A DNA stretch of 63,861 bases, filler included. It is 8 parts of 8 records of this genome, joined end to end, with 100 filler letters (N's around TTAATTAATTAA, not from the genome) between each part and the next. Parts side by side here need not be neighbours in the genome. Positions count along the whole stretch, not along the records: positions 27,073 to 33,912 come from SRR2962707_1206; 7 more parts are not named here. The stretch is one strand, 5' to 3'. This document shows positions 18,154 to 47,568 of the stretch, one piece after another. The notes below the pieces were generated by a model that saw only the letters and a list, made by a program, of their open reading frames with translations, searched no databases and was not told the DNA's origin. Every line of letters starts with the position of its first letter. Within the stretch, counting starts at the first letter, position 1. A program made the translations under genes and the position numbers.

Positions 18154-18253
18154 NNNNNNNNNNNNNNNNNNNNNNNNNNNNNNNNNNNNNNNNNNNNTTA
18201 ATTAATTAANNNNNNNNNNNNNNNNNNNNNNNNNNNNNNNNNNNNNNNNNNNN
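18154..18253. other. Artificial contig linker
   Basis: 44 N + TTAATTAATTAA + 44 N. Confidence 0.98.
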
Positions 18254-18591: not shown

Positions 18592-21500
18592 ATGGAAGTG
18601 GCGCCCGCCCATCCCAGTGCAGGCGGCAAGGCTGTCGTGAGATTGCGATCGATAGCATGCCACACAGTTTCTTCCGTCCGAGCGAATGACCGTAAAACAT
18701 TGCTGCAGTTGGTACCTTCCGTTGATGACCCACTTCTGGATACGGAGTGGGCTCGGCGCCACCTCGCTTGGATGGCAAAAAAAGACGCGTTAAATCAGGA
18801 TATGTTCCTTCTCGGGTCGCACGGCCCCTTACGTCGGCGCCTTGCGTTCAAGTTTTGCGAGTTGTCTCACCGTGAGTGTGAATACGTTGCATTGACCGCT
18901 GACACTTCAGAAGCAGACCTGAAATCGAGACGCGAGCTTCGGCGCACAAACGATCGCGACGGGCCTGGGGCTCTTGGCAGCTCTTTGTCGGTTGTTTGGG
19001 AAGACCAACCAGTTGTCCGAGCCGCTTTGTTGGGGCGCGTTTTAGTGCTTGAAGGACTTGAAAAAGCAGAACGCAACGTATTGCCAGTTTTGAACAACCT
19101 CCTCGAAAATCGGGAAATGCAGCTGGAGGACGGGCGCTTCCTCGTCGCTCCGAAGCGCTACGACGCCCTTGTGGCTCAACAGCTTGAGGAAGGCGGTGAC
19201 CGGCAAATGCACGGACTCGTTCGAGTCTCTGAAAAATTCCGCGTGATTGCCATTGGTGTACCTTCCCCTCCTTTCCCCGGCAATCCTTTGGACCCACCGT
19301 TGCGATCACGTTTCTCAGCCAGGCATGTAGCGCGGGCTCCGGCCCAAGATTTGGTGTTTGTGATTCGCACACACTTCGCACCTCATGTTCCACTTGCCAA
19401 GTTGCAGCGGCTTTTGGCATTTTTTGAAGCGATCTGGGCACTTGGAGAACAGCAAGGGGCATCCTCAGGTGCAGAAAGCAAGGCCATTGCATTTTCATCG
19501 CTTGTGTACCCATGCGAGCAGTCAATTTTTTCTGCATGCAAGCTGCTTGAAAGGCTTCCCAGCATTGGAGTCATGGACGCGCTTCACCGCGTTTTCCCGA
19601 GCCGCGTGGCTTCCGGCTTGCTGGACGGAGAAGCGCAATCACTTGTGTTGGCCGTCCTGGAATCAACTACGGAGGCTCTAGGGTCAGAGGAACAACTAGG
19701 GTTGCTGTTCCTTTCGTCAACCCCAATTGTCAGTGTAAAGGCCGCAACGGCAAACGACTTGCGTAGGTGTGGCGGTGCCATTGAAATCGACAAAAGCAAG
19801 GGGGTGGACCTTGGGCACGCAGCTCGCATGGTACAACTGCAATTTGCCTGCCAGCCGTCCGACACGCTGCGGATGACCACGACTGCTACGTCGGGAATCA
19901 GTCCACCTCGCCTGCCAGAAATCTCACGGTTACTTCCTGGACAGCGTCACGTCCTTGCTGGAATGCTTGCATCGGCTTCTATTGGAAGCGACGTGTGCCT
20001 GATTGCACCACGAGGCGAAGGGAAAACATTCATAGCACAAATATTTGGCGCAACTCTTGGATACGAAGCACAAATTGAAACCCTATTTTTGTTTGATGAC
20101 ATGTCCGCACGCGATTTATTCACTCGACGCTCAACTAACTCTCACGGGGAATCAACGTGGCAACCAACACCACTTACCACCGCAATGCTCCATGGCCACC
20201 TCTGTGTACTGGACGGTCTGCATCGGCTCCGTGCGTCTTCTTTGAGCGTTTTGGCACGACTTCTTCAGGACCGTGAGTGTCAGTCACCCGACGGCACCAG
20301 ATGGATATCGCCGCAACGATGGCAGCGATTGACGACGATGCATGGGCTTACAGAATCATATTTGCTCAGTCAGGGCTTGAGGCGGGTTCACCCGGCGTTC
20401 CGCGTCGTAGGATTGGCAATCCCGCGCGCTGCAAAGAACCGAAAGTGGTTGTCGAATGAGGTTTTGCAGCTTTTTCATTTCTTTGTGATGTCGTGTGTCA
20501 GCGAAGTTATTGATTTCGCTCCGCTTGTGCAGGCGACTGTACCCAAGTGCCCAGCGTCCATTGTTGCTTCCTTAGTGCGCGTTCGTAGACTATTGCGCGC
20601 GGCCGCTGTCGACCGAGGTTCGCCTTTGTGGGTAGGATCTGATGACCAAACTCACCCTGAACAATTCATGGATCACGAGCGAGATTTTCTTAAGATTCCG
20701 GATGCAGATTTGGACGGTGATTCCCTGTGGAATCCCTCGTTGCCGCCAGGCGCAGAACCCATCTCATTATCGTTACGCTCAATTCTGCGCGCAGCACGGC
20801 GGGCAGCAACTGCCCCGGCAAATGCAAATGTAAGCCGTGATGTTGGAACAAGCGTCGAAGCAGCACTTATGGCTGAATTCATGCCCGTACCGGAGCGCGC
20901 GGCAGTTCGTGCGATTATCAAAACCGCGGGTCTCGAACTTGAATCTAGAAATTTGAGGGTGTCCGCTGCGCAAAACATCCGCATCGATGAGGCCACTTTT
21001 CGAAACTCTGAACAATGTGAACTCTGCATTGGCAGTGAGCTGCTCGGGCATGTTCGACTCGTTCTTTCTCCGCCCACTACTCCGTCACTAGTACCGGACA
21101 CTGTTTTTTTTGACATTCCTCAAGCAAAGCTGGTGCTGATGGAAATGTTGCGCGATGTATTGAGCGGAGAGCACATGCTGCTCATGGGTAATCAGGGTGT
21201 CGGCAAAAACAAAATAACTGACAAGCTGTTAATGTTGATGCATCGTGAACGTGAATATGTTCAACTGCATAGGGACACGACTGTCGGAAGTCTGACGTTG
21301 TTACCATCCTTGCGGAACGGGGTGGTTTCATTTGAAGACTCGCCGCTTGTCAAAGCCATGCGCCATGGGCGCGTCCTTGTCATTGACGAATTTGACAAGG
21401 CTCCCACAGAAGTAGTGATTGTGTTGAAGGCGCTTCTGGAGGACGGCGATATTCTACTCGGCGACGGCCGTCGTTTTGTATGTGAAAGCCACCCAATGGC

Positions 21501-24500
21501 TTGCCATGGCCAAGTTGACTCGCTGCACGGAATCAACCTCATTCACCCTGACTTTCTCGTGATAGCCCTTGCAAATCGACCTGGATTTCCTTTCTTGGGC
21601 AATGATTTTTTCCGCGAAATGGGTGATAGCTTTGCTTGTCACGCGGTCCAGAACCCCGATGTGCGATCTGAAATGAACCTGCTGCAACGCTACGCCCCGC
21701 AGCTGTCACGAAAGCTGTTAGGCATGCTGTGTGCTTCATTTTCTGAACTTCGCGAGGCGACAGATGCAGGAAAACTGTCGTATCCATATTCGACACGTGA
21801 GCTTGTTGCGATTGTACGTCATCTGGCTGCCTATCCACAAGACAGCATTGGTTCGGTCTTGGAGAATGTATTCGCATTTGATGTGTACGACCAGCAGCTC
21901 CGAGATTTCATTTTTGGCGTATTTTCAAAGCATGGCGTCCCATTGGCCGACGCTGCTGTGTCCGGGCAAACAAAATCTCCAATTTTACTCGCACAGAGCA
22001 TGCCACTCCCACCGCCGCGCAAAATTGCCAATATTTTGACGCCACAAGCAATGAATAGCATTACAATGAACCCAACGAGCAGCTTACATTCGACTTTTTA
22101 TTCAGCGACATCATTTGAAGCTGGCCCGTTTGTTGTGAACTTCGATCGTGATGGTAGCGGCCCAGCTTGGGTTGCTTCTTGGCGGGCTGTTTCACCCGAG
22201 AGTGCCGAGGCAAGCGGTGGCGTTGAAGACTCACTTTTGCAAGGGCGGCCTGGTGCCGAATGGGCTCCACTAGCATGGCACTCCGCCCGTGCACACAGCT
22301 TCTCTGAAGAGGAATTATGGTTCAGAATCGCGTGCGTAACACGGGATGGGGTAATGATCGAAGGTTCCGACCCACAACAAGGATCGTGGCTGGGCGACAT
22401 GGTTGGATTTCAAGCTGCTCAAGACTGCATCTGTATCCTGACGACGATGCAGTGCTTGTACGTGGTAGATATAAAAAACATGAAGTCCCGGAAGCTGCCC
22501 ATTGCAGTTGCAGCCGGCGGTAGTTTAATGAACCGTGCAAAGTACGCCGCTGGGTCAACTTTGGTGGCTTTTGAGGACTCTTTGTTGACATACGACCAAC
22601 ATAATGAAGTGCTTATTCGAATGTGGCCTGCGCTTGGCCGAATTTCAACACTTTCCTTGTGTCGCCCAGCATCTGGGCTAACAACAAATGCCTGCGTATG
22701 CGCAGGGCTCATGACGGGATTCCAACCCCTATTGGTGCTGTTTGCCGAGGGCGGTTTCGAAGTAATGCTTGTTCACGCCTCTCAAGACCAATTGGGGAAG
22801 GCAAGATGCCGAAGACTCACGTTGTCAGAAGCAGTTGTAGGCAGGCAGGGAATCAAAAGTGTTGCATGCGTGTCGTCCTCCCAGCTCGGGATAATCACCT
22901 GCGAAGGCCAAATTGTGGAATTGGAATTCAGTGGTATGCCGCTCTGCGATGATACACATTGTAATGTGCGAAGTATTGGCAAATTGCCCGAGGTAAATGC
23001 AGAGTTTGTGCACATTGCAAGTCCCCCGGAGTTGCCTCACCACCACGTGCAGCGATGTGAGTTTATTGCAACTTTTGCATTGCGCGAAGCCGCAGGGTTG
23101 GCGGTTTTTGCATTTGAACGACCCGAAGACTTTCCTCACGCTGCTACCGTGCGGAACCGTGGACTAAAGCCGGTTGTTGGATGGCATGCTCCGTCGCATT
23201 CAGTGATCAATGTCTTTTCAGATTCGACTTCCACGTGGACGGATAGCCGAGGGAAAGAACTCACTAGCAGCAAAATTTCCGTTGCAAATGGGCAGGTTTT
23301 TGTTGAAATTGTCGATCCGCTAGCGCCACAGGTACGCCTTGTCGTTTTGACGGAGTTCCCAGGGAAATTCACGGGAGGGAAAGGAACAGGGGGTGATCTC
23401 ACTGCTAGAGCACTGCTCTTGACAGATGCGCAAAAACAGCGTGATGCAGCAAAGCAAGAGACGAGGCTTGGCATGGCCGCGTGTGTTGCTCTTTGTACCC
23501 TGCAAGATGGCCGCTTGGGGCTCCTCTTTGCAGATGGGCACGTTCGAATACTGGAGGTGCGCCCAGAGAAACTGGCTGCCGACAAATCACAGTGCGGTTT
23601 CTTTGATGATGCAGCACCGCCGCCAAGCACTGGCTTAGCCCCATCGCGGCATATTGGTGATGCAGCAACCAATACCGACGCCGATGGGGACGGCGATGGC
23701 GACGGTGACGGCATTGGCACGGGAAGCAGTAGTAACAAAGAAAGACATACGACGAACATCCTTCATCAGATGCGAAAACAATCGGCTTCGGATGCGCAGA
23801 GTGTCCTCCGGCGGGCGCGCGAGCTCGTTGCTCGCGCGTCTACAGGTGCTCGCGTCGAACTCGACCTCAATGACCTGGAGGTGGCCACATACGACGAGAT
23901 ATACGAGTCTGTTGAACCGCTTATTTCACAGCTTCGCGTTGTTCTGCAGTCGGTTGAAGCCAAGGAAAAGGAGCGCGTTTGGCTGCGCAACAAGACAAGC
24001 GGGGAGATGGATGATTCTCGTCTCGTTGACTTGGCCATCGGCGAGAAAAATGTTTTCAAGCAGCGCGGGATCCGGGACGAATCAGTTCTACGACAGCGAC
24101 TGCCCAAGCGACTAAGCTTTGTCGTGGACGTATCAGGATCAATGGCCTACTTTAACAGCGATCTTCGCCTTGATCGACTGTGTGCTACAGTTGTTATGCT
24201 GATGGAAGCCCTTGTCGGCCTAGAGCACAAGTACACGTACGAAATAGCTGGGCACTCCGGGGAAACGCATCATCTCCCACTCGTGGATTTCGACGTCCCG
24301 CCACGCAGTAGAAAGGAGCGACTGGCTGTTGTGCAGTCCATGGTTGCGCACGCAGCAGTGTGTCAAAGCGGCGACAACACTTTGGCAGCCGCGACAAGGG
24401 CAGTTCGTGATGTTCGATCCAGCGAGGCCGACGACTACTTTGTTTTCTTGGTATCCGACGCCAACCTGGAAGGCTACGGAGTCACCAGCTCAAGTCTCGC

Positions 24501-24684
24501 GTCTGCCTTGCTGGCAGACTCGGACGTCAACGCCTACGCTATTTTCATTGCCGAACCAGAAGTCGCTGAAGAGATGGCCGAACGAATGCCAGCCGGCCGT
24601 GCACACTTGGTACTTGAAAATGATGGCATGCCCCTACTATTGAAAGACATATTCTCTCGGGCGCTTTTGCGAAGTAGGCTGTAA
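18592..24684 (+). CDS. VWA8: VWA8-like AAA+ ATPase with C-terminal von Willebrand A domain, intronless, 2030 aa
   Basis: KDALNQDMFLLGSHGPLRR, EGLEKAERNVLPVLNNLLENREM, GNPLDPPLRSRF, Walker A motifs PRGEGKT and GNQGVGKNKI, YVQLHRDTTV, NRPGFPFLGNDFF, YPYSTRE, MIDAS DVSGSM, VSDANLEGYG. Confidence 0.93.
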   Translation: MEVAPAHPSAGGKAVVRLRSIACHTVSSVRANDRKTLLQLVPSVDDPLLDTEWARRHLAWMAKKDALNQDMFLLGSHGPLRRRLAFKFCELSHRECEYVALTADTSEADLKSRRELRRTNDRDGPGALGSSLSVVWEDQPVVRAALLGRVLVLEGLEKAERNVLPVLNNLLENREMQLEDGRFLVAPKRYDALVAQQLEEGGDRQMHGLVRVSEKFRVIAIGVPSPPFPGNPLDPPLRSRFSARHVARAPAQDLVFVIRTHFAPHVPLAKLQRLLAFFEAIWALGEQQGASSGAESKAIAFSSLVYPCEQSIFSACKLLERLPSIGVMDALHRVFPSRVASGLLDGEAQSLVLAVLESTTEALGSEEQLGLLFLSSTPIVSVKAATANDLRRCGGAIEIDKSKGVDLGHAARMVQLQFACQPSDTLRMTTTATSGISPPRLPEISRLLPGQRHVLAGMLASASIGSDVCLIAPRGEGKTFIAQIFGATLGYEAQIETLFLFDDMSARDLFTRRSTNSHGESTWQPTPLTTAMLHGHLCVLDGLHRLRASSLSVLARLLQDRECQSPDGTRWISPQRWQRLTTMHGLTESYLLSQGLRRVHPAFRVVGLAIPRAAKNRKWLSNEVLQLFHFFVMSCVSEVIDFAPLVQATVPKCPASIVASLVRVRRLLRAAAVDRGSPLWVGSDDQTHPEQFMDHERDFLKIPDADLDGDSLWNPSLPPGAEPISLSLRSILRAARRAATAPANANVSRDVGTSVEAALMAEFMPVPERAAVRAIIKTAGLELESRNLRVSAAQNIRIDEATFRNSEQCELCIGSELLGHVRLVLSPPTTPSLVPDTVFFDIPQAKLVLMEMLRDVLSGEHMLLMGNQGVGKNKITDKLLMLMHREREYVQLHRDTTVGSLTLLPSLRNGVVSFEDSPLVKAMRHGRVLVIDEFDKAPTEVVIVLKALLEDGDILLGDGRRFVCESHPMACHGQVDSLHGINLIHPDFLVIALANRPGFPFLGNDFFREMGDSFACHAVQNPDVRSEMNLLQRYAPQLSRKLLGMLCASFSELREATDAGKLSYPYSTRELVAIVRHLAAYPQDSIGSVLENVFAFDVYDQQLRDFIFGVFSKHGVPLADAAVSGQTKSPILLAQSMPLPPPRKIANILTPQAMNSITMNPTSSLHSTFYSATSFEAGPFVVNFDRDGSGPAWVASWRAVSPESAEASGGVEDSLLQGRPGAEWAPLAWHSARAHSFSEEELWFRIACVTRDGVMIEGSDPQQGSWLGDMVGFQAAQDCICILTTMQCLYVVDIKNMKSRKLPIAVAAGGSLMNRAKYAAGSTLVAFEDSLLTYDQHNEVLIRMWPALGRISTLSLCRPASGLTTNACVCAGLMTGFQPLLVLFAEGGFEVMLVHASQDQLGKARCRRLTLSEAVVGRQGIKSVACVSSSQLGIITCEGQIVELEFSGMPLCDDTHCNVRSIGKLPEVNAEFVHIASPPELPHHHVQRCEFIATFALREAAGLAVFAFERPEDFPHAATVRNRGLKPVVGWHAPSHSVINVFSDSTSTWTDSRGKELTSSKISVANGQVFVEIVDPLAPQVRLVVLTEFPGKFTGGKGTGGDLTARALLLTDAQKQRDAAKQETRLGMAACVALCTLQDGRLGLLFADGHVRILEVRPEKLAADKSQCGFFDDAAPPPSTGLAPSRHIGDAATNTDADGDGDGDGDGIGTGSSSNKERHTTNILHQMRKQSASDAQSVLRRARELVARASTGARVELDLNDLEVATYDEIYESVEPLISQLRVVLQSVEAKEKERVWLRNKTSGEMDDSRLVDLAIGEKNVFKQRGIRDESVLRQRLPKRLSFVVDVSGSMAYFNSDLRLDRLCATVVMLMEALVGLEHKYTYEIAGHSGETHHLPLVDFDVPPRSRKERLAVVQSMVAHAAVCQSGDNTLAAATRAVRDVRSSEADDYFVFLVSDANLEGYGVTSSSLASALLADSDVNAYAIFIAEPEVAEEMAERMPAGRAHLVLENDGMPLLLKDIFSRALLRSRL

Positions 24685-24774: not shown

Positions 24775-26478
24775 CTATGAGACTTTCTTCGCCGCCAACG
24801 CTTTGTCGATACAGGCTTTCGCCTCTTTCTGGAACGCCCAATACTTCTTGTCGGTTCCGTGAAGGCCGTCGAGCCAGCCCATCAGCCCAAAGTTCCTGCA
24901 AAAATGACACAATGCAGCGTCAGTGAGCGTCAGCCAATAACATCAATGCATTTGTTTTTCTTTCTCTCCTCTTATTTCTGTCGAAGTCGACGCAGAGCAA
25001 GTTCAGGCAACCGCAACACATTCAATTCAACCAAGACCACATGAAGAGGACAATGCGCGCAAACGAACGAGTTGAACTCCTTGTGGTGGAAGTCGTGGTA
25101 ATCACTGCAACGAGTGCGCGCAAGGATGCAGGTCAGAGTAAGCATTCTAAGGCAACAGTGGACCGATCAGGCACGATCAAACTGCACAGCACGCAGGAAC
25201 GACGCGACACGTACGGTTGCTGGTCAAATGGGAACGTGTATGGCCATCGGTAGCCGCTGTGGTGTGTCTGTGTGCCAGCCATTGCTGTGCACGCCCACAC
25301 AAAGGCAGTGAAATAGTTGACACGGAACAGGAGAAGGCCTGAAAGGTCGATGCGCACATGGGTAGGCATTGTCACCGGACACGATCACTCATCACAGCAT
25401 CAGTGCATGTTCGGCGTCACTGGGTTGCGGAACTTGCCAGCGCCAAGTGGGAGCACGTTGCAAAGCACCATTTCAATTGGATGAGCATACGCTGCAACAA
25501 TTCCGCACGGGTATCTGTGGTCGCACAGCGCACAAACGGGTCGAATCACGAGGGAGAAAAAAAAATGCAGCTCCGGCAAAACCCTGCACTCAACCACGCG
25601 TGGCAGTATGTCGTAGCGACGCACTGAAATTCGTGGTGAATTTTGTGGACTTTGATATACAGCCACTTGCTTTCATGGAAGAGTCGGTGCCCATAATAGA
25701 AAAGGATCTCGTCCACAATCACCACTAGCATAATATCAATCGCCATCTCCCAGCCATTGGGAAGAACGCCATCTGTGTCGCGCATGCTAAAACCACGGGG
25801 CACGAGCCAGCCAGCAAGATACGCAAAGGGAAGAAGAATGCAGACTTGACCTGCGAAACAGAAGCACAATTGTGCATGAGTTGGGTTGCATTGCAGGGGA
25901 GGGAAAACTGCAGTACGTGGGCAGGCACAATCTTGAACGAACCAATCACCAGGTTTTTGACGACGTGCAGAACGCGTAGCTCTCCGGATCGATGCTCGGG
26001 GCCATCCAACACCACGTTCAAAAATTTACCCTTCTGAACTTTGTACTGCGCTCGGAATTCATCGATTCGCCTCTGAAGCTGAGCATTGGGCCACTTCAGC
26101 TCAAGCAGGAGTAAGAAGAGGCCGTTGACCCAGTAAACCAACGAGGGCATGACGCCCGCTGTGATGAAAATAAACATCTCCGGGGACATTGCTCGCACGT
26201 ACGATTGCCACACTTGCTGAAACGTCTCGCTGTGAAGTGCAACACTAGACACGCCGCATGTCAACAAAGGATGGATGAGTGTGGCACGCAAAACAAACCT
26301 CAGCAACGCACACACACACGCGGACGCACGCACGCACGCACGCACGCGCACGCGCACGCACACACACTATGTGCGGCACCACTTACGCAACGCTAAGATG
26401 TGGCACCATCAGCCACGGGTGTGGGCTAGTCGTCATGGTCAGAAGCACGACGACAAATAGAGAACCAAGCGCGTCCAT
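24775..26478 (-). CDS. Fatty acid hydroxylase / sterol desaturase family membrane protein (FAXDC2-like, about 7 exons)
   Basis: His boxes after splicing: FYYGHRLFH, KVHKIHHEF, AAYAHPIE, THHSGY, YHDFHHKEFNSNFG, WLDGLHGTD; hydrophobic segments present. Confidence 0.9.
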
Positions 26479-26972: not shown

Positions 26973-27072
26973 NNNNNNNNNNNNNNNNNNNNNNNNNNNN
27001 NNNNNNNNNNNNNNNNTTAATTAATTAANNNNNNNNNNNNNNNNNNNNNNNNNNNNNNNNNNNNNNNNNNNN
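26973..27072. other. Artificial contig linker
   Basis: 44 N + TTAATTAATTAA + 44 N. Confidence 0.98.
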
Positions 27073-27925
27073 GAGGTTGTGTATCCAAAGTTGTTAATAA
27101 TAATATCTTACTTGGCAAAGACAATGCCGACAGTTCCACTCAGTTGCCCATTCATTCATTCATTCATTCACACCGGACCAGACAGTCATGAAGGCTGGTG
27201 CCCTCCCCATTCGTCATCCGGAAAAACCCGCACCCCGTGTGACCCCTGTAGCAATTTGAGACCGTACTTTTCATGTTTTTCGAACTTAACTCCACGCACC
27301 CTCAAGACCTGGCATACACACAAGGGCCAGCAACACGAGTTAGCAAATCAAGTTGTGCAACAGGATGGATGTTTGGACTCGCGAGTGCAGTTGTACATAT
27401 TTTTTTTGCCCTGGACTCCGTCAGTGATGCATTTTGTGTAGTGGCGCATTCACTGCGCGGACCAGTAAGACGCGTGCGTTATGGTGGCAGCTCGGAGCTC
27501 GGGACCAACAGTGTGGCAACTGAGGGCCATTAAAACTCGCAAATTGGACAGCGTTTATGTATTTGTCTGTAGGCACCTGGCTAAATGGCCCAGATTGTAG
27601 GAGCACGAAAGACACACAGACATGGCGACACGCACGCACGCACGCACGCGCAGACACGTACGCAGGATTGCCAACGCATCATCATCTGCAATTTTTCGGA
27701 TTTCTGCTGAGGCACTGCAAAACCGTGGAACTTCCAGCAGACATCCGAAGAAATGTGGTGGATAACAAGCAAGCAAAATTTAGTGCAAATACAATGGAAT
27801 CCAAATTTGTAAATCTTATATTATCAACTTGCTGCACAGGAAAAACGTCACGCCCGACTGCACGGGCAAATGCGGTGCGCTGCGACGAGCTTCTTGCCCC
27901 TCGGCCTTGCTTCAATTTTTACAGT

Positions 27926-30900
27926 TTAAACGCTTGTTTTTGCAAGCAGCGACGCCAACTGTCCTTTTAAGTCAGCAAGTGTCTTGGCCTGCCTTTGAAC
28001 CACCATATCTTGTTCAGCATCTCTCTTGGCCATTTCAGCAAGGGTCTTCTCTTGCTGGGCGAGAGTCTTGGCCTGGACATCTTCGACTTCTCCCAGAGCG
28101 CGACGTCGCGAAACCAATGATGTTAAATCGATATCATTGATGAGCATTGATTCGGCGCAAATGTTGACGTCCTTTTCCATCCGCCCCGTACAGATAAAGC
28201 TTGAAAAGCCAAACGAAGCACCGAAATCCTGAGTGGCTTCGGCGCGGTAGCCAGCCGCCAGGGAATACCGTCCAAACGCTGTATTGCGAGAGCCGCCGAC
28301 AACCGTACCAAATCGGCCGGTCACGCGGTTCATAAAGCCTCCGGCCACAGACCCATAGTTTGACATCACGTATGACTTGTAGCCACCAGCAATGGACGCA
28401 TAGTCAGCCTTTGCAAAGTTGTACTGCCCTCCGCCCAAGGTCGTGTAGTTGCCTGTAACGGTGTTGTCAGACCCTCCGGCGAGCACGCTGGTGGCCTGGT
28501 TGAAGTTGTCGTTGGACGGCGCAATGGAATTGAGCTTCACGCCATTGTGGTAAAGTCCCTCCACTTTAGTACACATGTTCACGGTTCTGTCACCCATAGA
28601 ATAGCAGTTCTCTCCGGAAAATCCGAACGCAGCCGCATAGTCGTCTGTGACCTGTGCGAAAGTTCCCACGGCGTACGACATATATCCATTTGCAGAGTTC
28701 ATGTAGCCGCCACCAACTGCGCTGTATTTCCCGGACACAAAGTTCAGCTCTCCTCCGCTGATTGCGCCAAGTTCTCCAAACACTGTATTCGAATTGCCAC
28801 CACTGACAACAGAATAGTCACCAGTAACGTAGTTTTCACCGCCGCCACCAATTGAAGCATAGTCTCCTTCAACGCGATTTTCCTCACCACCAGACACCAC
28901 ATCATATGATCCATACAAAGTATTGTACCGACCACCCGCGATGGTAGCGGAGTATCCATAAATGAGCTGGTGCGAACCACCAACAATCACTGAATAATCT
29001 GCTTTGGCAATATTTTCTTGACCGCCACCAATGGCAGCATAACTTGCACCGGCGTTGTTCACGGCACCACCAGAGATGGCAACTCCGAGCTCACTGGCAT
29101 AGTTGGCGTACCCTCCAGCGACATGGCTCCAAGTTCCATGACATTGGTTGTATTGGCCCCCGCTGACACTGCTCCACGATCCATAGGCAGTGTTAAAGTT
29201 TCCGCCGTTGATGTTTGCTGCATATCCATAAATGTAGTTCAACTCACCCCCGGTGATATGCGAGTACGATGTGTAGATCTTGTTCTTGTAGCCCCCGTTG
29301 ATGCTGGTCGCATAGCCGTACTGATGGTTGTACTCGCCTCCCCCGATGTACTGGTAGCCAGAATCGCAAATATTGTTGGTCCCGCCCGTGATCGCAGAGT
29401 ATGACGAGTACACGGTGTTGAAAGCACCTCCGCTGATTCCAGACCCATACCCGTACATGTAGTTGCCAGCTCCGCCGCCAATTGTCGCTCGCTCAAGATA
29501 GATGTAATTCGATTCTCCGCCACCAATAGTGCTATACTGGTCAACGACCTTGTTGCCTTCACCACCAATTATTGCGGTATGGGTTGATGTAGCCGAGTTT
29601 CCTTTGCCACCCAACAGCGTGGAGTATTCACCTGTGGCGTACGTTGCATAGCCTCCGCCAACAAAGGTCTTTGGTCCCATGGCGTTTGCTGAGTAGCCAC
29701 CAGCAACAACAGAGTGTGCGCCGTTAGCAGAGTTTGCGGCTCCGCCTCCAACACTTCCACAATAGCCATACACATAGTTGCCAGAGCCCCCTGCAACAGC
29801 TGCGTAAGTGTTGGCAACATAGTTCCCAGAACCGCCACCAATAGTGGTATAAGAGGCATAAATTTTGTTTGTCGTGCCCCCTGCGATGACGTGACTGGTG
29901 CCGGACGCATAATTGGAGTAGCCACCAGCAATGGTTCCGTACGTTCCACGGCCGTGGTTGTACCAGCCGCCACCCACATGCCCCCAGCCGCCGTAAACAG
30001 AGTTGTACTGGCCGCCGCCAATGGTTCCACTGTACGAGAACATGTAGTTGGTGTAACCTCCAGCAATGGTAGCATACCAAGCGCCATACTGGAAGTTCGA
30101 GTACCCACCTCCAATTGTGCTTTCTGGGCCCAACACGGTGTTGTCGTAGCCACCGCTGATAGTTCCCCAATCTCCACCAGTCTCCAGGTGATTGTCCATG
30201 CCACCACCACAGGTGGACCATTCCCCCTCTGCAGTATTGGAGTCACCGCCCCCAATTGATGCTGCGTAAGCACTGATGCGATTGGACAGGCCACTATTGA
30301 TGGTTGCGTGAGGAGCATAAATCCGGTTATTGCTTCCTCCATTGATGCTGTCATACGAAGAAAACGCATCATTGTCGTTGCCACCGTTGACATTGCTGCG
30401 ATACCCGGAGCAGTAGTTGTACTGGCCACCGCTCACCGTGCTCCAGTCTGCCGAGGCCCAATTGTAAAGCCCACCAGTTACAGTGGTTTCCTCGCCCATT
30501 GAACGAGAATATTGCCCGCCACCCATCGCGGAGGCATAACCATACGCAGAGTTTCCGTAGCCGCCAGCAACAGTGGCACCGTAGGAATAGATGTAACCGA
30601 AAGCCCCTCCGCCGAGAGTCGACCACTTTGAGTAGACATACGAGTTGTAGCCACCATGAATTGTTGCATACATTCCGTAGTTCCAGTTGAGGTAGCCACC
30701 GCTAATTGTGCTCCATGTACTGTACAGACGGTTGTACTTTCCACCAGTGACTGTGGACCAGGCACCGTAGGCAGAACTGTACATACCACCCGCGATGGTG
30801 GCAGCGGTGTTGTAAATGTAACTGTTGTGCCCCCCGGCAATAACAGCATGCGCAACGTAGACGTAGTTGGACTGTCCACCGCCAACTGTGCTGTAGCTGC

Positions 30901-33586
30901 TGTACACTCCGTTGTAAGCACCGCCGCCAATGGTCCCATGATACGTTGACGCATAGTTGTAGCCTCCGCCGCCAACGCTCGCCCACTGCCCTGATGCCCA
31001 GTTCCAGTGTCCGCCGGTGATCGCTGCACCCTCAGACATCGACTTCGAGTACCATCCTCCACCCACAAACGTGTATGAAGAATAGCCGGAATTGTACATA
31101 CCACCTGCGATGGTCGACGAGTAACCATAAATGACACCTGCGTGGCCAGTCGGGATGGTGGTGTACGCAGAATACACCCGGTTCGAGGTACCACCACCAA
31201 CCAAACTCCAACTGCTGTACACACGGTTGCTGATACCACCTCCGAGAAGTGCAGCGGTCGCACTCACGTATTGGTCATGACCACCTCCGATGGCTGTCCA
31301 TCCCCCAAAGCAGTGATTGTACCACCCACCACCAACACTGCCCCAATGCCCATACACGCTGTTGTACTGGCCACCACCGATTGCTGCAGCATATGCGTAT
31401 GTGTAGTGGTTGTGCCCACCACCAATGTGCACGAACAAGTCACGATTGGCCCAGTTGTAACTTCCACCACCGATGGAGTTGTACGCACCGTAGTTCCAGT
31501 TCCACCAGCCGCCGCCAATGACAGAGCGACTGCCGTACATTTTTTGATACCATCCACCACCAACGCCACTCCAACTCCCGTAAGCTGAGCAGTACATACC
31601 CCCTCCGACAGTGGCAGCGTACGAGTAGACGTACGAGTTGTGACCTCCTGCGATCGCTGTAAACGGTGCGTACACGTAGTTGGACTGGCCACCTCCCACA
31701 AGCGAGTACGATCCATAGGCACCATTGTACGCGCCGCCATTAACGGTCGCACGGAGCCCTCCTGCGTTGTTGTAGCCGCCACTCATGGACACTGAAGCTT
31801 CACCCCCAGCATACCCATAGTGGCCAACGCCAACGTTCGACCAGGAGCCCATGGCGCGGCTGTACCAGCCACCTCCAACAGCACCAGCGAGCCCGTAAAC
31901 AGAGTTGTACATGCCACCGCCGATGCTGGCACCGTAAGCGTAAATATAGGAATTGTGAGGTCCAGCCATGGATGACATTTCAGAGTAGATATAGTTCGAT
32001 TGGCCACCCCCGATCACACTGTACGGACTGTAGATGCGATTGAGCGACCCTGCGTTAATAGAACTCCATGTACCACTTGCCGCATTGTAGCCACCAGCCC
32101 CAACCACCGTGGCAGTTCCGTAAGCCCAGTTCCACATTCCTCCACCAATCGACGAATAGGCTCCCCACGCATGTGTGCTATAGCCAGAGAGCGCCGTTCC
32201 TGAAGACCCATATACGCTGTTGTACATACCTCCTCCAATGGTTCCCGCATACGAGTAAACGTAGTGGTTGTGGCCTCCGGCAATCGTCATGTAGTTTGCG
32301 CCATACATCCAGTGGTTGGTACCGCCACCAATTGTTGAGTATGGCGAGTAGTTCCAATTGTAGTAGCCGCCACCAATATGGCCCCAGCTCTTGTACATGC
32401 GATTCCACTTTCCGCCGCCAACGGTTCCTTGGGGGCCGTAAATGCTGTTGGACATTCCGCCCCCCACGGTGCCAGCGTAGGCATAGATGTAACTGCTGTG
32501 TCCACCCATAGTACTCCAACCAGCACCGACCCAATTTGACTGCCCCCCGTTGACAGTTGCTGCGTATGCGTACACCTTGTTGTACGCACCCCCAGTAATT
32601 GTACTCATGGTAGCGTAGGCATAGTTGTAGCCTCCACCTCCAACGGTGCTCCAAGCACCACCTGTCCAGTTATCATAACCTCCGCCCGTGAAAGACCATG
32701 ACGACATTGCGTTGTTGTAGTGACCACCGCCTGTGCGCGATTGGTGTCCGTAGGCCGAGTTGTACATGCCACCACCAACAGAGGACGCGTACGTGTACAC
32801 ATAATGGTTGTGCCCACCGGAGATGGTTCCGTACTTCGCATTTGTGTTGTAAAGCCAGTTGCTGGTCCCGCCCCCGATCACACCGTTGACCTGATAGTTG
32901 CGGTTGAAATACCCGCCTCCAATGTGGCCAGCGGTGTTGCCGATAAGGTTCTTCCACCCCCCACCGAGTGTAGAGTAGCCACCCCTGCATGTGTTGTACC
33001 AACCGCCTCCCAGACTGCCGTATCCACCACTCACGGTGTTGTATTGGCCACCAGCAATGGTGCCTCCGTACGAGTAGACGTAGTTGTTGTGCCCACCACC
33101 AATCGTAGCATATGCACCCCAGTTCCAATTCCAAGCCCCGCCTCCAATCACGGCATACTTATTGTACATCCAGTTGTATGCCCCGCCGCCAACGACGGCA
33201 TAAGCTCCCCAGTTGTGGTTGTACCACCCACCGCCTGTTGTACTTGCGTACCCTTTTGCGGAGTTGTACATGCCACCTCCGACTGTGGCGGCGAACGCGT
33301 AGGCATAGTTATTGTGGCCGCCAACAATTGTACTCCAATGGCCATCCGCGCGGCTTGAGCTTCCTCCGCCGACAGTGGACCAGGATCCCCACGCACCGTT
33401 ATACATACCGCCAGATGTTGTAGCACCGACGTTGTACGCGATGTTGCCATATCCACCGTTCACGGTTGCGGTTGTGCTGTAGGCAACATTGTATCTCCCA
33501 CCACCTATAACTCCAGCCGCAACAGAGGCGGTGCCAATAGCCAGGCATAGCAACACGGACAGCGAACGCTTCACAATTGAAGCCAT
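27926..33586 (-). CDS. Secreted 1886-aa Gly/Tyr/Asn-rich repeat protein (predicted beta-solenoid fibre, YadA-head-like repeats) with C-terminal coiled coil; intronless
   Basis: Signal-peptide-like N-terminus MASIVKRSLSVLLCLAIGTASVAA; about 107 + 5 repeats of xGGxxNxxxGxxSx(V/I); two similar Cys-containing cap modules; RRRAL; heptad-like tail. Repeats are diverged at DNA level while the ORF stays open for 5.6 kb. Confidence 0.88.
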   Translation of the reverse strand: MASIVKRSLSVLLCLAIGTASVAAGVIGGGRYNVAYSTTATVNGGYGNIAYNVGATTSGGMYNGAWGSWSTVGGGSSSRADGHWSTIVGGHNNYAYAFAATVGGGMYNSAKGYASTTGGGWYNHNWGAYAVVGGGAYNWMYNKYAVIGGGAWNWNWGAYATIGGGHNNYVYSYGGTIAGGQYNTVSGGYGSLGGGWYNTCRGGYSTLGGGWKNLIGNTAGHIGGGYFNRNYQVNGVIGGGTSNWLYNTNAKYGTISGGHNHYVYTYASSVGGGMYNSAYGHQSRTGGGHYNNAMSSWSFTGGGYDNWTGGAWSTVGGGGYNYAYATMSTITGGAYNKVYAYAATVNGGQSNWVGAGWSTMGGHSSYIYAYAGTVGGGMSNSIYGPQGTVGGGKWNRMYKSWGHIGGGYYNWNYSPYSTIGGGTNHWMYGANYMTIAGGHNHYVYSYAGTIGGGMYNSVYGSSGTALSGYSTHAWGAYSSIGGGMWNWAYGTATVVGAGGYNAASGTWSSINAGSLNRIYSPYSVIGGGQSNYIYSEMSSMAGPHNSYIYAYGASIGGGMYNSVYGLAGAVGGGWYSRAMGSWSNVGVGHYGYAGGEASVSMSGGYNNAGGLRATVNGGAYNGAYGSYSLVGGGQSNYVYAPFTAIAGGHNSYVYSYAATVGGGMYCSAYGSWSGVGGGWYQKMYGSRSVIGGGWWNWNYGAYNSIGGGSYNWANRDLFVHIGGGHNHYTYAYAAAIGGGQYNSVYGHWGSVGGGWYNHCFGGWTAIGGGHDQYVSATAALLGGGISNRVYSSWSLVGGGTSNRVYSAYTTIPTGHAGVIYGYSSTIAGGMYNSGYSSYTFVGGGWYSKSMSEGAAITGGHWNWASGQWASVGGGGYNYASTYHGTIGGGAYNGVYSSYSTVGGGQSNYVYVAHAVIAGGHNSYIYNTAATIAGGMYSSAYGAWSTVTGGKYNRLYSTWSTISGGYLNWNYGMYATIHGGYNSYVYSKWSTLGGGAFGYIYSYGATVAGGYGNSAYGYASAMGGGQYSRSMGEETTVTGGLYNWASADWSTVSGGQYNYCSGYRSNVNGGNDNDAFSSYDSINGGSNNRIYAPHATINSGLSNRISAYAASIGGGDSNTAEGEWSTCGGGMDNHLETGGDWGTISGGYDNTVLGPESTIGGGYSNFQYGAWYATIAGGYTNYMFSYSGTIGGGQYNSVYGGWGHVGGGWYNHGRGTYGTIAGGYSNYASGTSHVIAGGTTNKIYASYTTIGGGSGNYVANTYAAVAGGSGNYVYGYCGSVGGGAANSANGAHSVVAGGYSANAMGPKTFVGGGYATYATGEYSTLLGGKGNSATSTHTAIIGGEGNKVVDQYSTIGGGESNYIYLERATIGGGAGNYMYGYGSGISGGAFNTVYSSYSAITGGTNNICDSGYQYIGGGEYNHQYGYATSINGGYKNKIYTSYSHITGGELNYIYGYAANINGGNFNTAYGSWSSVSGGQYNQCHGTWSHVAGGYANYASELGVAISGGAVNNAGASYAAIGGGQENIAKADYSVIVGGSHQLIYGYSATIAGGRYNTLYGSYDVVSGGEENRVEGDYASIGGGGENYVTGDYSVVSGGNSNTVFGELGAISGGELNFVSGKYSAVGGGYMNSANGYMSYAVGTFAQVTDDYAAAFGFSGENCYSMGDRTVNMCTKVEGLYHNGVKLNSIAPSNDNFNQATSVLAGGSDNTVTGNYTTLGGGQYNFAKADYASIAGGYKSYVMSNYGSVAGGFMNRVTGRFGTVVGGSRNTAFGRYSLAAGYRAEATQDFGASFGFSSFICTGRMEKDVNICAESMLINDIDLTSLVSRRRALGEVEDVQAKTLAQQEKTLAEMAKRDAEQDMVVQRQAKTLADLKGQLASLLAKTSV

Positions 33587-33912
33587 GGCTCGCTGCGCGC
33601 CTCAGCCCAAGCTCACCGGCGACCAGCCACTACGTTTCTGATTCTGTGCTTCCAATGCAACAGTGCCAACGAGTCTTGGCCCAAAGTCGGTCTTTTTCTT
33701 TTAACAATGGCAACGATGCCAGGAACTTTGCCTGAAAATCCTAAGAAACTTTTACACGCCCATTCAGACGGAACCCTGCAACGCGATGCTTTAAGTCAGT
33801 GAACTTTGCGGTTGACCCATGGCACGTTGCCGAAATCCGATGACACAAACGCGAACATGGAGTGCGACTGGCTCGCCGCTCAATAACCAAACTCCACACG
33901 AACAATCGTTCG

Positions 33913-34012
33913 NNNNNNNNNNNNNNNNNNNNNNNNNNNNNNNNNNNNNNNNNNNNTTAATTAATTAANNNNNNNNNNNNNNNNNNNNNNNNNNNNNNNN
34001 NNNNNNNNNNNN
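33913..34012. other. Artificial contig linker
   Basis: 44 N + TTAATTAATTAA + 44 N. Confidence 0.98.
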
Positions 34013-34232: not shown

Positions 34233-37200
34233 ATGACGACCACGCACGTCTCGCAGACACGCTCCGATAGTGGTGGTCACAAGGTGCGAACGAAAATGGA
34301 CTGATTGAGCTTGCTGCGCTGTGCTGGCGAACAACATTTTTTTGTCAAGCCACTTTTTCGTTGCGGGGTGCATTGTTGTAGTTCTCAATGTTGGGGGGAA
34401 TTTGTTTTAATATCTCTCCCTGAATTTGTTTTGCTGCTTCTGCTGCTGTTGCTGCTGTTGTTGGTGGTGGCGCTGATACTGTTGCGGTGCGTCTGCCTGC
34501 AACTACGTGTGCGTGCAGCCGATATTTGAACTCGAAAACGACTATTTCGCAACGTCTCGGGATCATCATCAGCAGAGCCCGCGAGGTGGCTTGTTCTCAC
34601 CAACGGAGACGAGAAAAGAAAGGTCGACAGGGATCCAGGAAAGCGTTCCCAAAGCAGCTGGACGACGGCGGAGCAACAGTGATGGGAGTAGTCCGAGGAA
34701 CAACGGCAGCCCCATTAATAGCGAGGCAAAGTTTGCCTCGTTATTTTCACCAGATTTGTCAAGTAGTGAAAAGGCCCGAGATCTACGGACTCGCTCCGAA
34801 GGAGCACCGGAGGATTATGCGCCAACCTCCTCTGTAGCGATTCCTACCGCCGCTGCAGATTCAAACCAGACAGAAACGAGCAACAACACTGGTGAGACAA
34901 CTGCTGCAGGTCACTACGGCGCTTCCCTTGACACGTTCCAACTTGGGACGCCTGCCGAAAAGTCGTCGGTGCTATTAAGTCAACAACGGGACCGAACGAC
35001 GTCTTTGAACTTTCGCCAACCCTCGACAGACAGTGCCACAATTGCGGCGGGCTTAGGGCCAGGTGCTGGGCGTTCGGAAGCATCGAGTGCCAGAATACGG
35101 AAAAATACGCCACACGTTCGCAGTCCTTCGACGAGGAGTGAAGTTGGTGCTTCAGAGAGGACAGCTGCTTCAGTAAATGGCGACGATGCGGCTCTTGCGA
35201 GTAGTGAGGCTGGCCCCACCAGTGATGCTGGTAGCAATGGGTATCACCTTGCGGCGTTCCCTGGGGATCTGTCGCCTACCCAACAAAGGTCCTTGAGCTC
35301 ACGTGATCTTACTTCCTATTTTGGTGTGCAGCCGCGAAGCCGTCAAACATCTCGGTCAGTTAGTAACACTTCGCCGTCGTCAGCTCAAGCTGCCGCGGTT
35401 GTTGCAGCCAACATTGGGATGCGTGCACGTGTTCCTTCCGTACGCGACATCATTGCAGCCAAAGACATCTCCGCTACCACGCCACTTTTTCATCAAATGT
35501 ACGATGGTGAAAGGCTTTCCCCGAAGCCACAGTCATCGCCAAATTTGGCGCGCCTGAACCGCACGCATCACGTCAACCGCAGTGCTTCGGACGGACCCTC
35601 GTTGTACCGCAACGATGGCGCTGGAGGCCCAGCGGCAGCGGCCGCTGCAGCAAATGCTGCAGCACGTGCACGCGGTGCCGGTGGCGGAGGCAGCGCCATG
35701 ATTCCCCGAAGTGGCAGCGCTGTGGACTTTGGAGCTGCCGGTGCGCGCAGTCGAGCAAGAGGAAAAAGCAGCAGCCAACTTAGTCTTAGCGATGCAAAAC
35801 AAGCTTTATACCAGCAAAGCGTGTCGGGAATTTTGATCAAGCGTGGTTTCGGTGGGCTACAGCGCTGGAGACCGAGGTTTTTTGCGCTGCGCGGCCGCAT
35901 CTTAAGCTACTACACCTCGCAGGCAGCGGCCTTGCGCGCTCCCGGACGGCCTCGTGGACAGCTCGAAATTCAAAAGTTGACAAGAATCCGGCGATGTTCA
36001 TACGGTCCTGACCGTCAATTTGGCATTGAAGTACTGCCGCCCCCAGTGCATCCACGTCCACCACCTGTGCCTGAAGAAGAGAAAGCCAGAAATGAAGGTG
36101 CTGGTGGTATCAATGGCAGCGGTGGCAGCGCTGGCGGGCACAACGGTACTGCACCAAGCCGACCCCGAGCAGCCAGCACAAATCGGACAAGGCGTGGTTC
36201 TCAAGTAAAACAACCGAAGCAGCCCCCGCCATGGATGATGGTGGCACGGCACGAGGCGGAAAGGACCGCGTGGCTCGAAAAGCTTGTAGCTGTGATCCGA
36301 CTCATTGAGCGGGTGGAAGAGCCAGCGACCCTCCGTGGCCTTGGCAGCGTTCACGATCATTTCAAAATGGGAAAATTCCTCGGCAAGGGCCGGTTTGGTG
36401 TAGTGCGCATGTGCACGCACCATCTCTCGGACAAGGTGTTTGCAATCAAAATCATCAACAAAAACAAAAAGCGTCTAGTGTCCCAGATGTCGTCAAACAA
36501 GCACCTAACTGTGGATGCTCTCGACGCTACCTTGCAAAATGAGCTTCGAGTTTTGCGCTGCATCAAACAGCGTATTGGCACAAAGAGCCCATTCCTTTGC
36601 AACACATATGAGGTATACGAGGATAGTCACCTCGTGTGCATCGTGATGGAGTACCTTCCGGGCGGCGATCTATTTGATGCCATTATCCGTCACGGTAACT
36701 TTCAGGAATTGGACGCTGCTCGTATTGCTTTGCAGCTGACATCAGGGCTAAAGTCGCTCCACTGGGCGGGTGTCATCCATCGTGATATGAAGCCAGAAAA
36801 TATCCTTTTTACGGCCGCGCGTCCAGACTCTGGTGCGATGAACGTGAAAATAGCGGACTTTGGTTGCAGTCTTCTCATGTCCAATAAGAAAAAGGCGAGA
36901 CTGAGCCGCGGGACGACAACTTATTTGAAGCTGCGGCAGATTGTTGGAACCCCTGGATACATGAGCCCAGAAGTCCTGGAACATGGGCACTATGGTCCAC
37001 CCTGCGATGTTTTTGCCGTTGGTGTAATCTTGTACGTAATGCCGGCCCTGTTCAAACTTGATGAGCTTCATTTGAGTGTTCTGCACTTTCTGCCGGTCCC
37101 AAATTTGCCGAATGTGTTGCGTATCCCGTGGTCTGATGTACTTGCTGCCTTCGTGCCCGGATCGGTTGAATACCTGTGATGGTATCGCGCCCCCAATTGT

Positions 37201-39977: not shown

Positions 39978-40551
39978 GACCAACTTTGGCGGGTTGCTTG
40001 GATAGCACAGCGCGGTGTGAACGAAGTGAATCTGCAGAACAACGGTCTGCACTCTCCCAGCCCCCCGGGTCCTTCACGAAAGCGGCTCGTTGTTGATCCC
40101 CATTCTTGTTCCTTTCTCTAGCCAAAACCCTTCTCGAAAAGACTCAGGCACGGACCTGATCCGACCTATGTCTGGAGAGTCGGGTTTGACGTCGCTCCTC
40201 AACAGAGGAGACACGGTTGCGTGACCAGACCCTGTCGTCCCCTACGTAGCAAACTAATCTCTGATCTAGTTTCTTCCTCTCCTCCGATCTCGCAATCTCC
40301 CACAGACGACGAAAACGACGTCAAGAACAAAGAACAGCACACAGAAACGAAAAGAAAAAAGATCCGTTGCGATTGCACAAAACCGACTCCGCACGCACGC
40401 ACGCACGCTCGCTCGCTCGCACGCACAGATGCACAACACGAAAGATGCCAAGCCGGCGAGAGTGCTCGAAAGAGTTCGTTAGCCACAGAGAGAGACTCGT
40501 ACGCGAGTGTCGAACTTCGAAAACGAGCCGAAAAAAAAAAAAAAAAAAAAA

Positions 40552-40651
40552 NNNNNNNNNNNNNNNNNNNNNNNNNNNNNNNNNNNNNNNNNNNNTTAAT
40601 TAATTAANNNNNNNNNNNNNNNNNNNNNNNNNNNNNNNNNNNNNNNNNNNN
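40552..40651. other. Artificial contig linker
   Basis: 44 N + TTAATTAATTAA + 44 N. Confidence 0.98.
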
Positions 40652-47468: not shown

Positions 47469-47568
47469 NNNNNNNNNNNNNNNNNNNNNNNNNNNNNNNN
47501 NNNNNNNNNNNNTTAATTAATTAANNNNNNNNNNNNNNNNNNNNNNNNNNNNNNNNNNNNNNNNNNNN
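47469..47568. other. Artificial contig linker
   Basis: 44 N + TTAATTAATTAA + 44 N. Confidence 0.98.

Follow-up and report, generated by a model that had tools for sequence, protein, structure and literature searches.

The main finding of this study is that a giant fibre-like protein, hereafter P0001, encoded on the minus strand of the window (the whole stretch of DNA that was analysed, 63,861 nucleotides with filler included), is probably a secreted homotrimeric beta-roll rod of the UspA1 type that would serve a stramenopile as an extracellular adhesive or structural fibre. Profile comparisons show that the repeats of P0001 are homologues of the left-handed beta-roll, of the UspA1 type, found in the heads of bacterial trimeric autotransporter adhesins (TAAs), and modelling predicts both a beta-roll fold for each chain and a homotrimeric assembly. 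Comparison with an orthologue shows that P0001 is under purifying selection, with a conserved number of rungs. From the sequence of P0001 and of its relatives, we infer an adhesive or structural function outside the cell.

P0001 is encoded by an uninterrupted open reading frame (ORF) at 27926..33586, which is open from the first ATG to the stop and specifies 1886 residues. The absence of introns over 5.6 kb reported in a preliminary description of the locus is thus correct, and every element that it had listed—a signal peptide, about 107 repeats, a Cys-containing cap, five more repeats, a second cap, RRRAL and a coil—is present, the signal peptide being read by eye. All of these lie on the minus strand. 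The signal-peptide-like N terminus (residues 1-24; 33515..33586) consists of a basic MASIVKR, an 11-residue hydrophobic SLSVLLCLAIG and then TASVAA, and the repeats begin immediately after it. The main array (residues 29-1640; 28667..33502) holds about 107 slots of a 15-residue unit with the consensus G-G-x-[Y]-N-x-[AV]-[Y]-G-x-[YWA]-[SA]-T-[IV]-G. It is followed by cap 1 (residues 1641-1703; 28478..28666), which contains a YadA-like SxAxGxxAxA turn, FGFSGENC...C with cysteines C1661 and C1672, and GLYHNG; by five further 15-residue repeats (residues 1704-1778; 28253..28477); and by cap 2 (residues 1779-1822; 28121..28252), with FGFSSFIC...C (C1799 and C1810) and INDIDL. The RRRAL motif (residues 1827-1831; 28094..28108), in which R1829 and L1831 are invariant in an alignment of nine C-terminal modules (A2), precedes a C-terminal helix predicted to form a heptad coiled coil (residues 1832-1886; 27929..28093), with a/d positions running from L1842 to L1880.

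The periodicity of the array is evident at the protein level. Autocorrelation at period 15 over residues 26-1640 reaches 0.60 for Gly, 0.46 for Asn and 0.51 for Val/Ile/Leu, and the spacing from one GG to the next is exactly 15 in 79 of 114 cases. With a position matrix derived from these 79 units, 104 units could be chained (99 ahead of cap 1 and five beyond it), and because the bigger steps between chained units correspond to degenerate units, residues 29-1640 amount to about 107 slots. A score of 8 bits or more is attained by 100 segments, whereas 200 shuffles yielded 0.12 such segments on average and never more than one, a contrast somewhat inflated by the matrix being self-trained. Tandem Repeats Finder reported no repeat in the DNA, which indicates that the units are old and diverged. 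A pair of units, GGHN[HS]Y[VI]YxYAxT[VI]G-GGMYNSxYG, recurs at residues 89, 164, 257, 361, 437, 542, 647, 723, 813 and 918, that is, over residues ~89-1000 (~30587-33322, minus strand) with a spacing of 75-105 residues (5-7 units), and hints at an old higher-order repeat. When identity was plotted by lag along P0001, just a faint bump at 105 residues was seen.

The resemblance to bacterial adhesin repeats proposed in the preliminary description is borne out by sequence searches. Against the sequences of the PDB, P0001 matches the UspA1 head 3pr7 with an E value of 1.9e-16 over 252 in-register residues, and A2, used as a profile, matches the same structure with an E value of 7.2e-31 (110.7 bits) in an alignment that spans the last layers into the SxAAGxxAxA turn opening the cap. 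The second UspA1 structure, 3ntn, is matched by A2 at 1.3e-7, and weaker A2 matches are the grass protein LpIRI (3ult; 1e-3), CbpF (0.04) and YadA (0.13), while the curli subunit CsgA is not among the matches of either PDB sequence search. According to PMC9543794, UspA1 is alone among the solved heads in having layers of mostly 15 residues and an extra conserved Gly, and left-handed parallel beta-rolls rise by 4.8 Å per layer. At this rise, 107 layers give about 51 nm, close to the solenoid of roughly 50 nm that had been postulated, and a solenoid is indeed predicted by our monomer models. A single-sequence AlphaFold2 model of residues 861-1160 (pLDDT 76.1), aligned to 48,161 representative chains, has the TAA head of BpaC (7o23) as its top match (Z 20.4, 280 of 300 residues aligned, root-mean-square deviation [rmsd] 8.7, 22% identity). 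The UspA1 head 3pr7 is also well matched (Z 19.1, 234 residues aligned, 28% identity), and lower matches include CbpF (Z 15.0), LpIRI (13.6, over 114 of 114 residues), YadA (12.1), AtaA (12.1) and EibD (11.0). In Pfam, the sole match of P0001 is LbR_Ice_bind (PF21300), with an E value of 1.4e-6 and 28.8 bits over residues 1544-1627, below the curated cut-off of 30. YadA_anchor (PF03895) gave no Pfam match at E <= 1, P0001 ending in a helix/coil at residue 1886; Peptidase_S74 (PF13884) and Peptidase_G2 (PF11962) likewise gave no Pfam match, and P0001 matched 0 families in PHROGs and 0 in NCBIfam. No full-length match to a characterised family was found.

The trimeric state of P0001 is predicted from a fold of three copies of residues 1560-1886, run together with no alignment and alongside three controls. 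The interface score ipSAE was 0.87, 0.87 and 0.86 for the three-copy fold and 0.00 for the best control, contacts agreed between runs to at least 76%, and pLDDT was at least 76. In calibration, 21 of 30 proteins with structures solved as pairs and 0 of 23 solved single chains attained the ipSAE mark used; for eukaryotic proteins the corresponding figures were 17 of 29 and 0 of 30, with only one of seven reaching it among those with no older solved relative. The modelled interface recurs every 15 residues, with unit positions 11-13 and 15 facing positions 15 and 1-3 of the next chain, and it continues as a 3-4 heptad through L1842, Q, L, M, D, Q, V, Q, L, L, L and L1880. The trimerising C-terminal coil that had been suggested from the sequence thus reappears as a heptad coil in a three-copy fold that passes its controls. 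Unit positions 4-10, including the Tyr-rich positions 4, 6 and 8, lie outside the modelled interface.

That the gene is real and maintained by selection follows from comparisons with other data sets. A 5742-nt contig with the same organism label and another study code covers 27926-33667 with 0 differences, which shows that the long repetitive frame is no artefact of a single assembly. In a run with another organism label (X4), an orthologue about 90% identical covers 27940-33696, and 32 of the 37 differences listed between 27980 and 28361 fall at third codon positions. A further comparison is with an orthologue on a metagenome contig (L001), which shares 71.3% identity with P0001 over 1749 residues, with a pN of 0.20, a pS of 0.73 (saturated) and a dN/dS of about 0.09. 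The two proteins differ by two indels only, one of four residues in the signal peptide and one of two residues, and since this is so despite saturated silent sites, both rung number and register are conserved. A register kept nearly exact over such a length suggests that the length of the rod is itself functional, which would be unusual among tandem-repeat proteins and is testable. Upstream of this orthologue, 1.1 kb (L001 1-1117) has no detectable similarity to the 326-bp upstream flank in the window and contains none of the (CACG)n microsatellites described below; outside the coding region, the two organisms have diverged beyond recognition.

Contigs of a run with the organism label of the window (X1) cover 27872-33667 and not the flanks, which are covered by a DNA run (X2); that X1 is RNA is a guess, and its coverage was not counted as evidence of expression. 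In X1, records 3-5 are contigs of 4.0-8.3 kb that resemble the gene imperfectly over short stretches, and many of the loose ends are repeat-like. The organism probably has several paralogues of the fibre family, none of which was found within the window.

The gradient of charge and aromatic residues remarked on at the outset is real. Asp and Glu make up 0-2% of residues up to position 1050 and then rise in the C-terminal third, to 7-9% in parts (7.3% in residues 1051-1200 and 8.7% in 1501-1650), while Tyr, Trp and Phe account for 12-20% of each segment throughout residues 1-1800, which comprise the repeats and caps. Among the 1886 residues there are 409 Gly, 209 Tyr and 54 Trp, and NxS/T sequons number only three. 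Bulky aromatics occupy unit positions 4, 6 and 8 in 59, 41 and 82% of cases, respectively, in the first 1050 residues, and these positions remain aromatic in the L001 orthologue in 97, 90 and 94% of cases (n = 33, 29 and 50). The aromatic ladders that had been described are therefore a real feature, kept between orthologues. With a Tyr+Trp content of 15.4%, the repeats of P0001 surpass those of every stored relative that has 10 or more exact units; the 186 that do not belong to the cap family defined below average 5.4% with a maximum of 13.3%, and the highest value among the other cap-family members is 13.6%.

A further finding is that P0001 belongs to a subfamily, so far unnamed, within a very large family of repeat proteins. 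A profile search of 1.84 billion representatives returned 15,001 proteins with E values of 1e-3 or lower, of which 391 have values of 1e-30 or lower; the named repeat relatives are proteins from bacterial metagenome-assembled genomes (MAGs), some of them called "tail fiber domain-containing protein." In a collection of 5.8 billion clusters, from which P0001 itself is absent, as it is from the 15-billion collection, no relative exceeded 38% identity to it. What sets the subfamily apart is a cap motif located directly after the last roll layers, [F/L]xF...C-x(5-10)-[hydrophobic]-x-[hydrophobic]-C...G[LF][FY]xN, which occurs twice in P0001 (residues 1654-1681 and 1792-1818). Of 240 stored proteins, 28 contain this motif, as do 3 of another 74. 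The combination of beta-roll, two-Cys cap and coil is found in P0002, P0009, P0015, P0065, P0407 and P0142, among others, and one cap-bearing relative is a EukProt entry. In A2, the four cap cysteines (C36, C47, C174 and C185 of the alignment) are invariant, as are R1829, L1831 and N1817. Peptidase_S74, present in 25 of the 84 matches of one relative search, was found in 0 of the 5 cap-bearing ones.

The cap subfamily comes in two architectures, of which the first is the secreted double-cap form typified by P0001: cap 1, cap 2 after 138-139 residues (five layers), RRxL, a coil of about 55 residues and the end of the protein. The spacing from cap to cap is 138 in P0001, 139 in P0142 and 138 in P0214, and the whole series from cap 1 through the five layers and cap 2 to RRxL and the ~55-residue terminal coil recurs in P0191, P0203, P0126, P0143, P0159 and P0130, whose tails end 94-97 residues after cap 2. 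P0065 has final repeats, RRxL and a terminal coil in common with P0001, along with one of the caps. This module of cap, five repeats, cap, RRxL and coil defines the unnamed subfamily, whose fuller-length members look eukaryotic. The conserved RRxL is probably either a dibasic processing site or a structural feature. The region around it (residues 1827-1833), about 60 residues from the C terminus, fits RxLx[E/D/Q] in 7 of 10 aligned tails, which is the form of the apicomplexan PEXEL export motif.

The second architecture is receptor-like and comprises a signal peptide, sometimes a thrombospondin-type (TSP1-like) repeat, a UspA1-type beta-roll, a two-Cys cap and a long coiled coil, after which come a large ectodomain, a GPS-like motif (CxxSH[LF]TxF), a number of hydrophobic segments and a tail rich in K, R and E. 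It is seen in full in P0002, P0009 and P0407, which are unnamed metagenome or EukProt proteins, while P0007, P0112, P0114, P0121, P0157, P0160, P0183, P0184, P0373 and P0374 were assigned to it from their cap and GPS-like motifs only. The GPS-like motif, C-x-[ST]-S-H-[LF]-T-x-F, occurs in 12 of the 28 cap-bearing stored proteins, and in P0002, P0009, P0015 and P0407 it is followed by hydrophobic transmembrane-like segments and a long charged tail. One cap-bearing relative begins with a TSP1-like repeat that scores 28 bits, below the Pfam cut-off. These receptor-like proteins recall adhesion G protein-coupled receptors or polycystin-1, but with a trimeric adhesin tip, and this architecture suggests that the roll is used in binding. 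The family may extend further still: in Protein Atlas, the best cluster score (0.91, to be taken as a lead only) belongs to a family of S74 fragments that is 91% Eukaryota, with Haptophyta the commonest, and such haptophyte "Peptidase S74" fragments suggest that related proteins have gone unnoticed in other algae.

Taken together, these observations can be combined into a model of how P0001 might be built and used. The protein would enter the endoplasmic reticulum (ER) cotranslationally, and each chain would fold into a left-handed parallel beta-roll with one 15-residue repeat per 4.8-Å layer, three such rolls packing round a common axis as in bacterial TAA heads. The C-terminal coil and the caps would most likely set the three chains in register in the ER, this C-terminal module standing in for the membrane anchor of bacteria or the S74 chaperone of phages, and the dibasic RRxL site could allow the coil to be removed later. 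The 112 layers would span ~54 nm, which together with the two caps and a coil of ~6 nm would give a rod of 55-65 nm. The face left free by the interface would expose ladders of Tyr, Trp, His and Asn, either for multivalent binding of polysaccharide or other surfaces or for Tyr cross-linking into a wall or coat. A bolder scenario, which we regard as improbable in its entirety, is that stramenopiles domesticated a bacterial or phage trimeric beta-roll in two forms, one a free aromatic rod of ~60 nm and the other the adhesive tip of multi-pass GPS-like receptors; the rod would be a fibre of defined length, perhaps the thin filaments of tripartite flagellar hairs or a prey- or particle-capture fibre, its coil would be a removable registration device cut at RRxL, and its rung number would be constant between species. 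Our literature search found no structure of stramenopile flagellar hairs. The distribution of relatives makes a lateral origin from bacteria or phages plausible, and any such acquisition would be old, given the diversification of the subfamily to which the gene belongs and the eukaryotic look of its fuller-length members.

An alternative that is possible, albeit rather unlikely, is that P0001 is a structural component of a wall, cyst coat or hair rather than an adhesin, its Gly/Tyr rods being dityrosine-cross-linked, or laterally stacked via the aromatic ladders, to give a resistant layer. Gly/Tyr-rich proteins are often cross-linked structural proteins, and the abundance of both residues in P0001, its few sequons, the near absence of charge up to residue 1050, the highest Tyr+Trp content among the relatives compared and a rung number constant within two residues between orthologues are all in keeping with such a role. 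However, the contig of the fibre gene offers neither a peroxidase nor a wall context, and the presence of the same cap at the tip of membrane receptors suggests binding instead. A structural role in a wall or coat cannot be separated from adhesion here, and our preferred reading of P0001 as a trimeric extracellular rod embraces either use.

It is very unlikely that P0001 is an ice-binding or ice-recrystallisation-inhibition (IRI) protein, i.e., a giant version of the grass IRI beta-roll. This reading draws on the LbR_Ice_bind match in Pfam and on LpIRI, which is matched by P0001 itself (E 3e-5) as well as by A2 and is aligned over its entire length in the fold search. However, the Pfam score is under the cut-off and falls in the C-terminal, less aromatic part of the protein, and UspA1 matches A2 far better than LpIRI does. 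Moreover, known ice-binding faces are flat arrays of small residues, whereas the non-interface positions of P0001 are largely bulky, and it is this, together with the subthreshold score, that makes ice binding unlikely.

Equally hard to sustain is the notion that P0001 is a monomeric beta-solenoid or an amyloid-like subunit of a curli-type fibre rather than a TAA-like trimer. The monomer models fold as solenoids on their own, and CsgA ties with TAA heads in both wide fold searches (Z 12.6 and Z 19.9). At the sequence level, by contrast, A2 matches UspA1 at 7e-31 and CsgA is absent from the matches, the three-copy fold clearly exceeds its controls with contacts every 15 residues, and the heptad coil has Gln and Leu at its core positions. 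These features point instead to the UspA1-type trimer that we favour for P0001.

To which organism P0001 belongs must be judged in light of how the window is composed. It is a chain of eight contigs joined by seven artificial linkers of the form 44N-TTAATTAATTAA-44N (12485-12584, 18154-18253, 26973-27072, 33913-34012, 40552-40651, 47469-47568 and 54531-54630), a point missed in the preliminary description, so that gene order across the joints is no evidence of linkage. The fibre gene is alone on its contig (27073..33912, 6840 bp), between two such linkers. Its start context, GCCATGG, is Kozak-like, and its flanks of ~1.2 kb contain no convincing second gene and no Shine-Dalgarno motif. In its 3' flank there is a (CACG)n microsatellite (27629..27648, plus strand) that is common to all seven other contigs; across the window this repeat has 26 matches against 0.05 expected, with sites at 12375-12398, 12585-12608, 26327-26346, 27629-27648, 40392-40407, 47407-47426, 47570-47589, 54513-54528 and 63768-63783. 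Many of these sites are at contig ends, and at two joints the repeat is present on both sides in the same orientation, which suggests that the assembly broke inside it and that those neighbours may be truly adjacent. The contig of the fibre gene has a GC content of 0.53, like the rest of the window, and the relative synonymous codon usage (RSCU) of the fibre ORF correlates at 0.34-0.71 with that of other ORFs in the window, inside their mutual range.

The other contigs encode a midasin-like AAA protein of 2030 residues (18592-24684, plus strand), a focadhesin/RST1-like protein of 2549 residues (55973-63622, minus strand), a PH-domain kinase (35419-37179, plus strand) and the N terminus of BMS1 (46264-47205, minus strand), each as an uninterrupted ORF, as well as a RING/WW ORF, also on a contig other than that of the fibre gene. 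Such long uninterrupted ORFs suggest a compact, intron-poor stramenopile genome. BMS1 is 66% identical to a EukProt protein, 60-62% to oomycete and 57-59% to diatom sequences, which identifies the organism as a stramenopile without a close named relative. An Rfam scan of the window returned 0 matches. The shared (CACG)n, the codon usage and the eukaryotic relatives place the fibre gene in this stramenopile genome, the protist context coming from contigs that are physically unlinked to it. That a bacterial or phage tail-fibre gene was assembled with the protist is scarcely credible, for although the gene is tied to the other contigs by linkers only, has thousands of bacterial or phage relatives and sits on a contig with a divergent tetranucleotide profile, that contig carries the microsatellite of all the others, matches them in GC content and RSCU and has a eukaryotic rather than bacterial start context with no convincing gene in its flanks, and P0001 has no S74 domain, no anchor and no phage family match but does have a cap/RRxL/coil module found, among the relatives examined, only where fuller-length members look eukaryotic. 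Consistent with this, a scan of IMG/VR with the C-terminal 261 residues revealed no close relative, a tblastn search of residues 1387-1886 against 50,697 phage records (low-complexity filter on) gave no match, and no sign of the contamination that the preliminary description had allowed for was seen.

Several points nevertheless weigh against P0001 being a secreted, trimeric, UspA1-like rod of a stramenopile. There is no physical linkage of the fibre gene to eukaryotic genes, its contig carrying no other gene, and the tetranucleotide profile of that contig correlates only at 0.21-0.43 with the others, as is expected from the strongly biased composition of a repeat gene, so this is a comparison that does not by itself prove membership of the host genome. 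Secretion is suggested by an N terminus read by eye. As for the fold, the Pfam families YadA_head and UspA1_rep are unmatched at E <= 1, CsgA (Z 19.9) ties with the TAA heads for the model of residues 861-1160, and the rmsd of the TAA matches is high (7.5-8.7 Å). Foldseek, advised in the preliminary description, finds nothing in the PDB at E <= 1e-3 for either monomer model. The model of residues 1491-1886 has a pLDDT of 64.9, with the caps below 50, and its wide search is generic (CsgA Z 12.6, UspA1 9.7). Finally, the trimer job was unlike the calibration, with three copies and no alignment, and its pass may reflect memory of solved TAA heads.

If correct, our interpretation means that the UspA1-type 15-residue head fold is used by a eukaryote without the autotransporter machinery and with a different, conserved C-terminal module predicted to drive trimerisation. 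It exposes a family of mostly unnamed metagenome and transcriptome proteins, including the receptor-like forms with a GPS-like motif and transmembrane segments, and this family offers a handle on cell-surface adhesion in heterotrophic stramenopiles, which are poorly studied. Furthermore, an uncharged, Tyr/Trp-laddered trimeric rod of defined length, as predicted here, would be an attractive material scaffold. The abstract of a review states that TAAs are "exclusively found in bacteria" (PMC3417366), and our literature search found no paper linking TAA-like heads to stramenopiles, other protists or eukaryotes.

Comparison with known systems highlights important similarities and differences. The closest is the UspA1 head of Moraxella catarrhalis (3pr7 and 3ntn), with which P0001 shares the 15-residue GGxxNxAxGxYSTIG layer with its extra Gly, an array that ends in a YadA-like SxAAGxxAxA turn and, by prediction, the trimeric state. 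Unlike UspA1, P0001 has no neck, no long stalk and no YadA_anchor beta-barrel, its host is a eukaryote and its signal peptide is, by eye, of the ER type; it has instead two-Cys caps, RRxL, a short coil and non-interface positions dominated by Tyr and Trp. Of the features of the TAA class, P0001 thus has beta-roll heads and an in silico homotrimer, but it lacks both the anchor and Gram-negative outer-membrane export, its contig sharing (CACG)n with contigs that encode midasin, BMS1 and the PH kinase. The left-handed parallel beta-roll (LPBR) head of BpaC from Burkholderia pseudomallei (7o23) is similar in that it too is a long beta-roll without interruptions, has an Asn ladder and rises by 4.8 Å per layer (PMC9543794). 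It differs in that its layers are of 14 residues, its surface is very acidic, its core is hydrophilic and it belongs to a type Vc autotransporter, whereas P0001 has 15-residue layers and is nearly uncharged and aromatic. Of the ~42 layers predicted for the C-terminal head of BpaC, 20 make up "the largest such structure solved" (PMC9543794), and the array of P0001, with ~112 layers, would be roughly 2.5 times as long. The bacterial and phage "tail fiber domain-containing" proteins with S74 or G2 domains have the repeat family in common with P0001, P0003-P0005 being 33-36% identical to it (best local alignment) over 66-72% of residues 1560-1886, and they too would be long trimeric repeat fibres registered from the C terminus. 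However, their bacterial caps read GDRSFGFNG...GIGTTNP, without the Cys pair, and P0001 has no S74 or G2 domain. The grass protein LpIRI (3ult) is likewise a two-stranded left-handed beta-roll of similar period, with weak sequence and fold matches to P0001, but it is a monomer of ~8 layers whose ice-binding face is flat and made of small residues.

The nearest eukaryotic parallel that we found is the TLP-12 glycofibril (CryoSeek), which, as presented in bioRxiv 10.1101/2025.09.30.679562, is an extracellular trimeric fibre with a short tandem peptide repeat and candidate genes in protists, which are alveolates. Its 12-residue repeats form an interleaved triple beta-helix that is heavily O-glycosylated, and its C terminus bears a phage-type trimerisation (ICA) domain. 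P0001 differs from this account of TLP-12 in its predicted per-chain beta-rolls of 15-residue layers, in having just three NxS/T sequons and in having a coil in place of ICA. Against this background, the fold and the logic of the trimeric fibre are already known, while P0001 is new in its eukaryotic setting, in its cap/RRxL/coil module, in a length that is both extreme and conserved, and in its aromatic surface.

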